Assembly (NCBI GenBank): GCA_040386275.1
Contig: JAZKFU010000008.1
Coordinates: 176,219-240,218, forward strand
DNA: 64,000 bases
Direction of reading: 5' to 3'
From: Patescibacteria group bacterium
GTDB lineage: Bacteria; Patescibacteriota; Minisyncoccia; Phycocordibacterales; UBA918
The notes beneath the pieces are model-generated. The model worked only from the letters and a program-made list of their open reading frames with translations, was not told where the DNA came from and did not search any database. Both the position numbers and the translations under genes were made by a program. This document shows positions 5,371 through 8,214 of this stretch, one piece after another (position 1 is the first letter of the stretch; each line of letters opens with the position of its first letter).

Positions 5371-8214
5371 TTATTGTAATAACAAATTGAGGATTCGTCC
5401 TGGTACGTAAATAACTTTTTTGAGGGTTCCGCTCAGTAATTTTTCTTGTAATAACGGGTTATCTTGGACAGCATTTAACGCTTCTCCTTCCGTAGCGTCC
5501 GGGGCAATGGTGATATTCCCTCGTAATTTACCGTTAATTTGCACGCCAATAACGACAGTTTCATCAATAGCGAGCGTCATATCGGCTACGGGGAAGGTTT
5601 CGGTGTGGACAGAACAAGTGTGTCCAAGCTGAGTCCAGATTTCTTCAGTCAAATGAGGTGCAAACGGAGCGAGAATCCGAACAAATAACTCATATGAGGC
5701 TTTGGTAATACTGCCCTTTTCAGCCAGGTTTACCAAAATCATCATCGCGGAAATAGCGGTGTTATATTTGAATTCCAGAATATCAGTCCCTACTTTTGCG
5801 ATAGTTTTATGGAGCTGGCGAGTAAGTTCTGTTGGTTCAGAATCACCAATATGGTCTACCAGTCCATACACCCGCTCCAAGAACCGTCGCACGCCAGCAA
5901 TGCCTCCAAAGTCCCACGGGTAGCTACTATCAGCGTACGGACCCATAAACGCCAGATAGATTTTTACTGTATCAGCACCAACAAGTGCTACTTGTGCATC
6001 GGGGTCAACCACGTTGCCTTTACTCTTACTCATTTTGTTACCGTCCGGACCCAAAATCATGCCGTGATTCACACGTTGCTTATATGGTTCACTTTCAGTG
6101 ACGAGACCTAAGTCAAAGAGCGCCTTTTGCCAAAATCGTGAATAGAGTAAGTGCATGGTGGTGTGTTCAGCGCCACCAAAATACATATCAATCGGCATCC
6201 ATTCCTTTTGCGCTTCAAGGGAGGCAAGACCTCCTTCGTTTTTGTTATCAAGGTAGCGCAAGAAATACCACGATGAATCAACAAACGTATCCATGGTTTC
6301 TACTTCAGGAGTCCACCCCGAACCAAAGATTTCTTCAGTTCGTTTTTTAAGCGCTTCACTTTTAGCGAGAGGTGCAACCCCGGTTGGTTTAAAATCTACA
6401 TCCTCTGGCAGTACCCACGGTAAATGTTCTTTGGGAACAATATGCGCTTCTCCTGTTGGAGAATAGACAATCGGAATCGGCACGCCCCAATACCGTTGCC
6501 GACCAATAGACCAATCACGCAACCGAAAGGTTGAGGTCATCTCACCGCCCACCTTGGCAACAATTTTTTCTTTAGCCTCTTCCGAATCCATCCCATCAAA
6601 TTCATCGGAGTTTATTAAATATCCATCGCCTGTAATGGCTGATTCTTTTTGTAGCATTTGCCACACTTGTTTTTGGTGGTCAGGAGTTAGTTTTGCAAGC
6701 ACTTCTTTCTCGTCTACCCAAACAAGTGTATGTATTGCTGATTCTGATTCTGGTATGACACCTTGTTCGTTTAGATTCTCAACTTCACCTAAAAATGCGT
6801 ACGTGTGGGCACAACGGTTTTGTTGCTTGTGTGAAGCACAGTATTTAGCAGCAGTAATCCATTTTAATTTTGAAACAATAGTTACTCTGTTGAGAGCTGC
6901 TTCCTCATTCATTTCCGCCAACGCTGCTTCTTCCGGAGTTTGTCCATTTTCAATACCACCCATGATTGCAGTAGTTATACCCTCAAGAGTGCCGTGCCAA
7001 TTAAGGAGTGCGAATTTACCGGTACTTTTGTCTCTGAGATGAATAATAACGGTGTCGCGTTTTACTTCTTTAAATTCCGGTCTTGGTGGATTCTTTGAAT
7101 CATCTGCGCAAGGGACGATAACTTGTTTAATCGGCAATCCAAACTTAGTAGCAAAGGCGTAATCTCGCTCATCGTGCGCGGGTACAGCCATAATAGCGCC
7201 GGTGCCATAACCGCCTAGTACATAATCAGCCACATACACAGGAATCTGTTCCCCGCTGGCTGGATTGGTCGCTGTTATACCAGAGAGTACCACCCCGGTT
7301 TTCTCTTTAGTGGCGTCGAGTCTATCCTGTTCATCCTTTTGCGTAGCTGTTTTTACATATGCATCAACGTCCGCTAAGTTCGAGGTCTCGCCTCGAACTT
7401 CTGATTTGCTGAGTAACGGGTGTTCGGGGGCAAGTACTAAGTACGTAGCGCCAAATAATGTGTCAGGTCGAGTGGTAAATACCGTTACAACATCGCCAGT
7501 TGAGAGGGTGAAGTTTATTTTTGCTCCCTTACTGCGACCAATCCATTGGCGTTGCGCTTCTTTGATATGGTCTGGCCAGGCTACGGTGTCTAAATCATCA
7601 ATTAATCTATCTGCATAGTCGGTGATTTTCATCATCCACTGTGGCATTTCGCGTTTTTCAATCACATCACCCGATCGCTCACAGGTGCCATCGGTTAACA
7701 CTTGTTCATTGGCAACCGCCGTATTACATCCCGGACACCAGTTCACAATACCTTTACCTCGATAGGCAATACTTTTTTCGAAAAATTGGGTAAACATCCA
7801 CTGCGTCCATTTGTAGTAGTCTTGATCGGTTGAATTAGTAGTTTTGTCCCAACTAAACATGTTACCCATGCGTTCGAGCTGTTCACGCATAAAGGCCATA
7901 TTTTCATAGGTCCAATCTTTGGGATTGAGGTTACGTTTAATAGCAGCATTTTCAGCCGGAAGACCAAAGGCATCAAATCCAATCGGATACAGTACCTGGT
8001 GACCACTCATACGTTTATAGCGCGCGTAAATATCGGGTACAGCAAACGCATACCAGTGGCCAATATGTAAATTGCCTGAAGGGTACGGCCATTCTACGAG
8101 GACGTAGGACTTTGGCTTTGATCGATCGCGCTCCCCTACATTGTATATACCTGATTCTTTCCAAATGGCTTGCCATTTCTTTTCTATCTCACCAGAATCA
8201 AATTTTTTGTGCAT
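5371..8214 (-). CDS. leuS: leucyl-tRNA synthetase (947 aa) with an internal Nudix-like insertion
   Basis: HIGH motif ([11 protein letters not shown]), KMSKS ([12 protein letters not shown]), TTRPDT CP1 motif at residues 247-252, [14 protein letters not shown]; extra ~135 aa with a Nudix-box-like [23 protein letters not shown] between the CP1 hinge and the catalytic core. Confidence 0.9.
   Translation of the reverse strand: [947 protein letters not shown]

Follow-up and report, generated by a model that had tools for sequence, protein, structure and literature searches.

A Nudix-like domain inside the leucyl-tRNA synthetase of Patescibacteria

Few enzymes are as conserved as the aminoacyl-tRNA synthetases (aaRS), and bacteria rarely nest a large catalytic domain within one of them. 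What kind of domain, then, interrupts the leucyl-tRNA synthetase (LeuRS) of a Patescibacteria group bacterium, and what could it be doing there? The locus lies in a stretch of 64,000 nucleotides (nt) of contig JAZKFU010000008.1 (GenBank assembly GCA_040386275.1, positions 176,219 to 240,218 of the forward strand), hereafter called the window. The host gene, leuS, occupies 5371..8214 on the reverse (-) strand, as do all features within it given below, and it is the sole long open reading frame (ORF) covering the region of the insert in the ORF list. Its product of 947 amino acids (aa) is a bacterial-type LeuRS according to the TIGR00396 leuS_bact model (878.6 bits against a cut-off of 548.4) and aligns to the LeuRS of Thermus thermophilus (1h3n) with an E-value of 1e-198; the HIGH and KMSKS motifs are found at aa 50-53 and 727-731, respectively. 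A protein 100% identical to it (P0261) is named 'class I tRNA ligase family protein [Patescibacteria group bacterium]' by NCBI.

A preliminary description of the locus, made from the letters alone, had proposed that a Nudix-like domain is embedded in this LeuRS, and both profile and structure searches bear this out. The Pfam NUDIX model (PF00293) matched aa 388-515 (6670..7053) of the whole protein with 34.8 bits (E-value 1.9e-8), above the gathering score of 21.1, and the excised segment with 38.3 bits (E-value 1.7e-9). The range originally proposed, 6649-7059 (aa 386-522), is the core of the domain, with the string KRDTVIIHL beginning at aa 385, and the positions reported for the quoted strings and for the Nudix box (6892-6960) were correct. 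The limits of the insert were set in two ways. In the alignment with T. thermophilus LeuRS, aa 372-524 (approximately 153 residues) stand in place of a loop of approximately 7 residues, and in the comparison with a near-identical allele devoid of the insert, nt 6627-7132 (aa ~362-530) are swapped for 128 nt. The Nudix cassette, taken as the segment missing from that allele (aa ~362-530, 6625..7131), includes an N-terminal 'D..NPP...V.R' extension and a C-terminal helix.

An AlphaFold2 model of a 165-residue segment, computed with a 47-row alignment of the insert family, reached a predicted local distance difference test (pLDDT) score of 94.8 and a predicted template modelling (pTM) score of 0.88. 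In this model the strands and helices follow the order of the Nudix fold and the whole segment forms a single Nudix domain. The top matches were all Nudix proteins in both structure searches with the model, and Foldseek against the PDB retrieved Escherichia coli RppH at a probability of 1.00 and a TM score of up to 0.71. The predicted structure thus gives solid grounds for a genuine Nudix fold (alpha/beta/alpha) embedded in LeuRS, and not for a known LeuRS-specific insertion of another fold, the outcome that would have contradicted the original proposal. Against PDB sequences, phmmer with the insert yielded nothing beyond matches that were spurious or confined to the box, a designed beta-trefoil among them, and a word-indexed homology search with the insert alone returned just two fragments, so that exhaustive and profile searches were needed to detect the family. 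No intein-like features (Hint/splicing or homing endonuclease) were found in the insert, to which Pfam assigns NUDIX alone. An assembly artefact can be discounted, because the reading frame continues through the insert and the arrangement is seen again in 12 independent genome assemblies and over 100 protein clusters.

Where exactly does the domain sit? The preliminary description had placed it between CP1, the editing domain, and the catalytic core, and this placement did not hold. The CP1 model PF13603 (207.8 bits) matched aa 222-374 as model positions 1-148 of 185 and is interrupted at position ~148. Alignment with Thermus LeuRS pairs query residues 4-371 with residues 3-367, with small gaps only, and resumes with query residues 525-722 as residues 375-579. 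In addition, the isolated E. coli CP1 chain 2ajg has 47 further residues beyond its aligned residues 10-149. Because the CP1 model is interrupted at ~148 of 185 and the isolated E. coli domain continues for those 47 residues, the Nudix domain is nested within CP1, with the remainder of CP1 following it. Accordingly, CP1 is split into a part before the insert, aa 222-366 (7117..7551), as delimited by PF13603 and the Thermus alignment, and a part after it, aa 527-563 (6526..6636), where the second Thermus stretch starts (query residue 525 equals Thermus residue 375).

Location in an editing domain raised the idea that a shortened CP1 has weakened post-transfer editing and that the insert makes up for this, for instance through hydrolysis of mischarged or adenylated species. 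That location, however, is the sole support for it. The translation carries both the threonine-rich editing motif, TTRPDT (aa 247-252, 7459-7476), and the AHDERD-containing motif (aa 343-352, 7159-7188). The earlier measurement of approximately 90 aa between them was right (aa 252 to 343), but the conclusion that CP1 is short was not, as the same spacing is found in Thermus LeuRS and the length of CP1 is normal. The window and all 12 relatives that bear the insert keep TTRPDT and GTG...AHDERD, the first varying to TTRADT in L003 and L010 and to TTRPET in L008. Furthermore, the CP1 core is the same in a syntenic relative (93-96% nucleotide identity) that has no insert, and the bonds broken by Nudix chemistry are those of pyrophosphate linkages, as opposed to aminoacyl esters or acyl-phosphate anhydrides. 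There is no sign of editing compensation, because CP1 is normal, its motifs are intact and the relative manages without the insert; we consider the idea extremely improbable. With HIGH, KMSKS and the editing motifs all intact, the window LeuRS looks, from its sequence, fully functional.

The syntenic relative is also the key to how the domain behaves in evolution. Locus L019 (GCA_040384045.1) is collinear with window positions 1-12314 at the identity given above, and in it 128 unrelated nt (L019:5180-5307) replace window 6627-7132 (506 nt), yielding an 821-aa LeuRS (P0269). Identity falls to 77-80% just downstream of the junction. Upstream of the cassette, window 7255-7314 (leuS codons 301-320) is only 62% identical to L019 over 60 nt, where L019 reads GVKLDAVFATNP, compared with 83-98% in the neighbouring 60-nt blocks; this divergent patch suggests mosaic recombination in CP1. 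Seven further LeuRS of 815-832 aa in the same sequence neighbourhood lack the domain, and the five that were aligned carry differing short linkers. Some of the short linkers are possibly remnants, as P0284 has 'SLHKIGNR' where the Nudix family has HKxxNR.

Across the window and 12 genomes, mean pairwise identity was 66% for the insert, 59% for CP1, 53-57% for the catalytic core and 39% for the anticodon-binding and C-terminal part. The ratio of nonsynonymous to synonymous substitution rates (dN/dS) of the insert was 0.05-0.19 where dS could be estimated, which, dS being saturated for most pairs, refers to a few region-pair combinations only. These values and the conserved residues described below mark the insert, on sequence grounds, as a complete, selectively maintained Nudix domain of a subfamily found here mainly in Patescibacteria. 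The divergence of insert and host is not proportional. The insert dN was 0.13 for the relative L001, 0.18 for L003 and 0.19 for L004, while dN of the host catalytic and CP1 regions was 0.09-0.13, 0.45-0.51 and 0.37-0.39, respectively. Such an inconstant ratio fits cassette exchange between divergent leuS genes better than uniform constraint. Because a syntenic relative lacks the cassette and the divergence of cassette and host is uncoupled, the sequences describe a dispensable recombining module that is gained, lost or replaced over short evolutionary time, and without which LeuRS works.

How widespread is the arrangement? The preliminary description had called for an alignment to related lineages and expected a Nudix domain in an aaRS to be unusual. 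For aaRS in general this stands, but not for the lineage in question. Scanning one genome per species for a peptide pattern revealed the same-site insert in 12 Patescibacteria assemblies (labelled Kaiserbacteria, Paceibacterota, Moraniibacteriota and 'Saccharibacteria') with 57-81% identity, and all 12 carriers are in-frame LeuRS genes or gene fragments. Among the 120 LeuRS clusters most similar to the window protein, 110 have a precomputed PF00293 match. The Nudix insert is therefore the rule in this lineage and typical of Patescibacteria.

An exhaustive phmmer search with the insert through 1.84 billion representative proteins gave 139 matches, approximately 100 of which are LeuRS, whole or fragmentary. 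Within these the domain follows the 'KQVI' strand of CP1 in 81 copies, precedes CP1 in 14 and stands further downstream in two, and some LeuRS have two or three Nudix copies. One match is a class II prolyl-tRNA synthetase (ProRS; P0113, 643 aa) with a Nudix domain of the same subfamily at residues 398-515, between the anticodon-binding and C-terminal domains. A protein of 4818 aa (P0018) was discarded as a false positive of this search, being a chalcone-synthase repeat protein. Free proteins of 110-250 aa account for 36 of the 139 matches. Profile searches showed that the free form is common in Patescibacteria as proteins of approximately 170 aa scoring 160-176 bits, which share the NPP...V.R, HKxxNR and E..H..W motifs with the insert (e.g., P0058, P0070, P0148 and P0183). 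They are 22-33% identical to the window insert among the listed profile matches and up to 37% in the exhaustive search. In two of three genomic contexts the free copy does not adjoin leuS; in the third it lies approximately 3 kb from a leuS that itself holds an inserted copy. Two free Nudix proteins of 170-192 aa (P0158 and P0241) are called 'leuS' or 'leucyl-tRNA synthetase' by their sources, a consequence for annotation that adds to the generic NCBI name of the protein identical to the window LeuRS.

Does the insert have what a Nudix hydrolase needs? The variant Nudix box of the window covers aa 419-441 (6892..6960), as seen in the sequence and in the alignment of relatives. Measured against the canonical G-x5-E-x7-R-E-U-x-E-E-x-G-U with its nine specified positions, it keeps six (G, E434, M, E437, E438 and L) and departs at three, E7 being Q425, R15 being A433 and G22 being A440, so that the box is not complete. 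The preliminary description had correctly noted the retained EE pair and the lost Arg but had counted the latter as the single deviation. The three putative metal ligands, E434, E437 and E438 (box glutamates E16, E19 and E20), are invariant in all 78 nearest LeuRS copies, and R386, G419, G420, A430, K463, N466, H495 and W499 are at least 98% conserved among them. Outside the box, two family alignments (A1 and A2) show three family-wide signatures, the N-terminal D..NPP...V.R segment, HKxxNR and E-x3-H-x3-W. In the window the second of these reads HKQQNR (aa 462-467, 6814..6831), including K463 and N466, and the third is E491-x3-H495-x3-W499 (6718..6744). The latter motif corresponds to alignment columns E126 (at least 90% conserved in A1 and A2), H130 (at least 90% in A1 only) and W134 (invariant in both). 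Two other candidates did not survive. A C-x2-H-x6-C-x-H zinc site was rejected, as both cysteines vary among relatives, and the equation of E491 with E120 of RppH stays a guess, since hhalign of the family profile with E. coli RppH aligned the 36-column box region alone.

The changes at box positions 7 and 15 are not independent. Of the 159 family copies of the domain, 103 have E7 together with R15, 48 have neither and eight are mixed. Among the 78 nearest same-site LeuRS copies, 25 keep both and 45 have Q together with a non-Arg residue. Because the two positions co-vary, with just eight mixed copies of 159, the pair seems to change as a unit, which looks like a compensated swap rather than decay. 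From this conservation we infer that a site binding metal and phosphate is maintained, its second shell having undergone a compensated change. The Q-type box also occurs in the free proteins P0058, P0070, P0034 and P0045. In LeuRS with several copies (P0005, P0007, P0009, P0011 and P0013), a Q-type copy (Q at position 7, no Arg at 15) is usually paired with canonical E/R copies, and the pairing suggests two functionally distinct paralogous cassettes.

It could be argued that the altered box belongs to a Nudix-like module without catalysis, a ligand-sensing or structural element as in the NrtR/AraR regulators, through which CP1 motion, handling of tRNA or binding of partners is tuned, perhaps under the control of a nucleotide. 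The invariance of the three metal-ligand glutamates and the paired change of E7 and R15 speak against such a module, and the acidity of the insert (isoelectric point, pI, 5.9; family median 5.6) speaks against a general RNA-binding pad. Nor does the insert track the loss of the leucine-specific domain. This domain is missing from the window LeuRS, where query residues 722 and 728 correspond to Thermus residues 579 and 638 and approximately 58 residues (580-637) have no counterpart, and it is also missing in all 12 insert-bearing relatives and in the insert-less allele. Taken together, we regard a non-catalytic role as quite unlikely. The related idea that the insert binds tRNA as a stand-in for the leucine-specific domain is given low weight, since the insert is acidic and the insert-less allele also lacks that domain.

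The reading we favour, with slightly less than even confidence, is that the insert is an active pyrophosphohydrolase tethered to the synthetase, with dinucleoside polyphosphates or related nucleotide-X species as its likeliest substrates. The nearest characterised structural relatives are diadenosine-polyphosphate (ApnA) hydrolases, decapping enzymes and RppH, at 13-21% sequence identity, and RppH models, every one of them far below its cut-off, are the commonest NCBIfam matches across the family. The proposal of the preliminary description that the domain might hydrolyse diadenosine tetraphosphate (Ap4A) appears reasonable on the modelled structure, because these relatives include diadenosine-polyphosphate hydrolases. 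The strong association with LeuRS, plus the one ProRS, counts for a link to aaRS. Synthetases are a main cellular source of Ap4A, and they make dinucleoside polyphosphates from the aminoacyl-adenylate.

The mechanism that we envisage starts from a recombining Nudix cassette lodged in a CP1 loop of a LeuRS that has no need of it. Metal would be bound by E434, E437 and E438 of the Nudix helix, to which E491, outside the box, may contribute, and the polyphosphate chain would be held by R386, K463, N466 and R467. The substrates would be Ap4A-type dinucleoside polyphosphates or related nucleotide-X compounds, formed at aaRS active sites from aminoacyl-adenylate and a nucleotide, and the hydrolase would be held right beside the synthetase. 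Catalytic competence, substrate and coupling to LeuRS chemistry are all what we infer from the sequence and the model.

Several points weigh against this tethered hydrolase. The domain fits no curated Nudix subfamily; among RppH models (NF001938 and relatives) the highest score is 24.1 bits against a cut-off of 116, and the top structural match, 2azw, bears a generic MutT/nudix family name without an assigned activity. The window box lacks E7, R15 and G22, which may carry a functional cost in this subfamily. A single-sequence AlphaFold2 model of the full-length LeuRS had a pLDDT of 34.8, too low to read how the Nudix domain faces the synthetic and editing sites. LeuRS is not known as a strong producer of Ap4A. 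Finally, unrelated hydrolases (HAD, Ham1 and Ser_hydrolase) occupy the same LeuRS loops in relatives, and they fit generic 'house-cleaning' passengers equally well.

These other hydrolase folds are found in LeuRS loops of related genomes at four or more sites. A Ser_hydrolase domain (PF06821) is inserted after the position of window aa 240 in L004, at 245-398 in P0275 and at 594-755 in P0004. A HAD domain (HAD_2, PF13419) follows the position of window aa 359 in L008 and is found at 245-414 in P0006 and at 653-808 in P0047. Ham1/ITPase (PF01725) is present in partial form in P0326 and in full length (984-1167, 197 bits) in P0051. A second, fully canonical Nudix domain lies ten residues past the first in L001 (after window aa 536) and in clusters of approximately 1100 aa.

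Such variety bears on the possibility that the insert is a passenger, i.e., an active general nucleotide-sanitising hydrolase with no mechanistic tie to leucylation, CP1 loops being permissive and small genomes parking hydrolases in them for co-expression or genome economy. The differing folds at no fewer than four sites, the abundance of the same Nudix subfamily as free proteins of approximately 170 aa in Patescibacteria, the genome with both a free and an inserted copy, and the dispensability of the insert would all agree with this. However, the bias towards LeuRS is strong, as multi-domain matches comprise approximately 100 LeuRS and one ProRS against a handful of others, and the insert is more strongly conserved than its host. 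Convenience alone leaves the repeated choice of LeuRS, at several sites, unexplained. We therefore hold the passenger explanation to be somewhat unlikely.

The same cassettes are also reminiscent of self-protection, in which the domain would hydrolyse nucleotide-like inhibitors of LeuRS such as aminoacyl-adenylate mimics. The analogy is with isoleucyl-tRNA synthetase (IleRS) that has an internal N-acetyltransferase domain (NCBIfam NF040702, ileS_w_GNAT), a precedent for an enzyme built into an aaRS. The two systems have in common an unrelated enzyme domain inside a class I aaRS, and the window differs in the synthetase, the fold and the chemistry. Presence/absence polymorphism in close relatives and horizontal cassette exchange are typical of conflict-driven genes, and several alternative hydrolase cassettes do occur in the same loops. 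All this is purely circumstantial, however, and no Nudix-related, toxin, immunity or defence genes were seen beside leuS in the neighbourhoods of the window, L015 and L019. The free paralogues, moreover, are widespread and look like housekeeping genes. We consider a protective role very unlikely.

A broader view, speculative and rather unlikely in our estimate, joins several of these elements. The editing domain and a few other loops of Patescibacteria LeuRS may form a docking platform for recombination-exchanged cassettes of several hydrolase kinds (HAD, Ham1/ITPase, serine hydrolase and Nudix with either of two box types), with the Q-type Nudix of the window being tied to the synthetase. It would either clear aaRS-made dinucleotides or adenylate-like poisons at their source, or act as a nucleotide-sensing gate on editing or aminoacylation. 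This would amount to a modular, horizontally shuffled form of quality control or self-defence.

How does the window LeuRS compare with the systems already known? With bacterial LeuRS (T. thermophilus 1h3n/2byt and E. coli 4aq7) it shares the class I core with HIGH and KMSKS, CP1 with the threonine-rich and AHDxRD motifs, and the anticodon-binding and C-terminal domains. It differs from them in the approximately 155-170 extra Nudix residues that stand for a 7-residue CP1 loop, and in having the tetrapeptide GPDG at the position of the leucine-specific domain. In the Thermus alignment this tetrapeptide (aa 722-725, 6040..6051) lies just upstream of KMSKS (6022-6036), and it resembles the GKDG tetrapeptide of Mycoplasma mobile LeuRS (PMC3643597).

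Among characterised Nudix proteins, the insert is closest in structure to the ApnA and RNA 5'-end pyrophosphohydrolases (Rv2985, Ndx1, the lupin and Caenorhabditis elegans Ap4A hydrolases, RppH, AvrM14 and DIPP/DDP1). It differs from them in being 13-21% identical and below the RppH cut-off, in having Q, A and A at box positions 7, 15 and 22, and in being nested in another enzyme rather than free. The MutT/nudix protein 2azw of Enterococcus faecalis is free-standing, has a canonical box, is 16-20% identical to the insert and offers no functional lead. The stand-alone Patescibacteria Nudix proteins of approximately 170 aa are of the same subfamily as the insert but are separate genes. By profile and fold the insert can be assigned to the Nudix superfamily and to no characterised Nudix subfamily.

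No curated model for LeuRS with a Nudix domain was present in the copy of NCBIfam searched, and full-text literature searches, which cannot prove absence, turned up no description of such a domain in LeuRS, nor in aaRS of Patescibacteria. A known synthetase and a known fold are combined here in an undescribed nested, cassette-like arrangement, and across a whole bacterial radiation the proofreading domain of LeuRS routinely houses a conserved Nudix domain. Action on nucleotides made by the synthetase, such as Ap4A, would tie aminoacylation directly and physically to the metabolism of alarmones or RNA caps. A passenger role would instead illustrate how housekeeping enzymes come to be packed into essential genes in reduced genomes. 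Near-identical natural alleles with and without the cassette make the question directly testable.

As for the surroundings of the gene, the window contains two 73-nt tRNA genes according to Rfam, at 25982-26054 (-) and 37777-37849 (-), neither of type II tRNA-Leu length. The genes flanking leuS are located at 4251-5357 (-), 8570-9055 (-) and 9017-10288 (+), and their order was compared with that in L015 and L019. The gene order around leuS is conserved: a Sigma70_r4/HARE-HTH protein is encoded immediately downstream in both loci, as in the window, and upstream of leuS L019 further shares with the window a response regulator and a PAS/HisKA histidine kinase.

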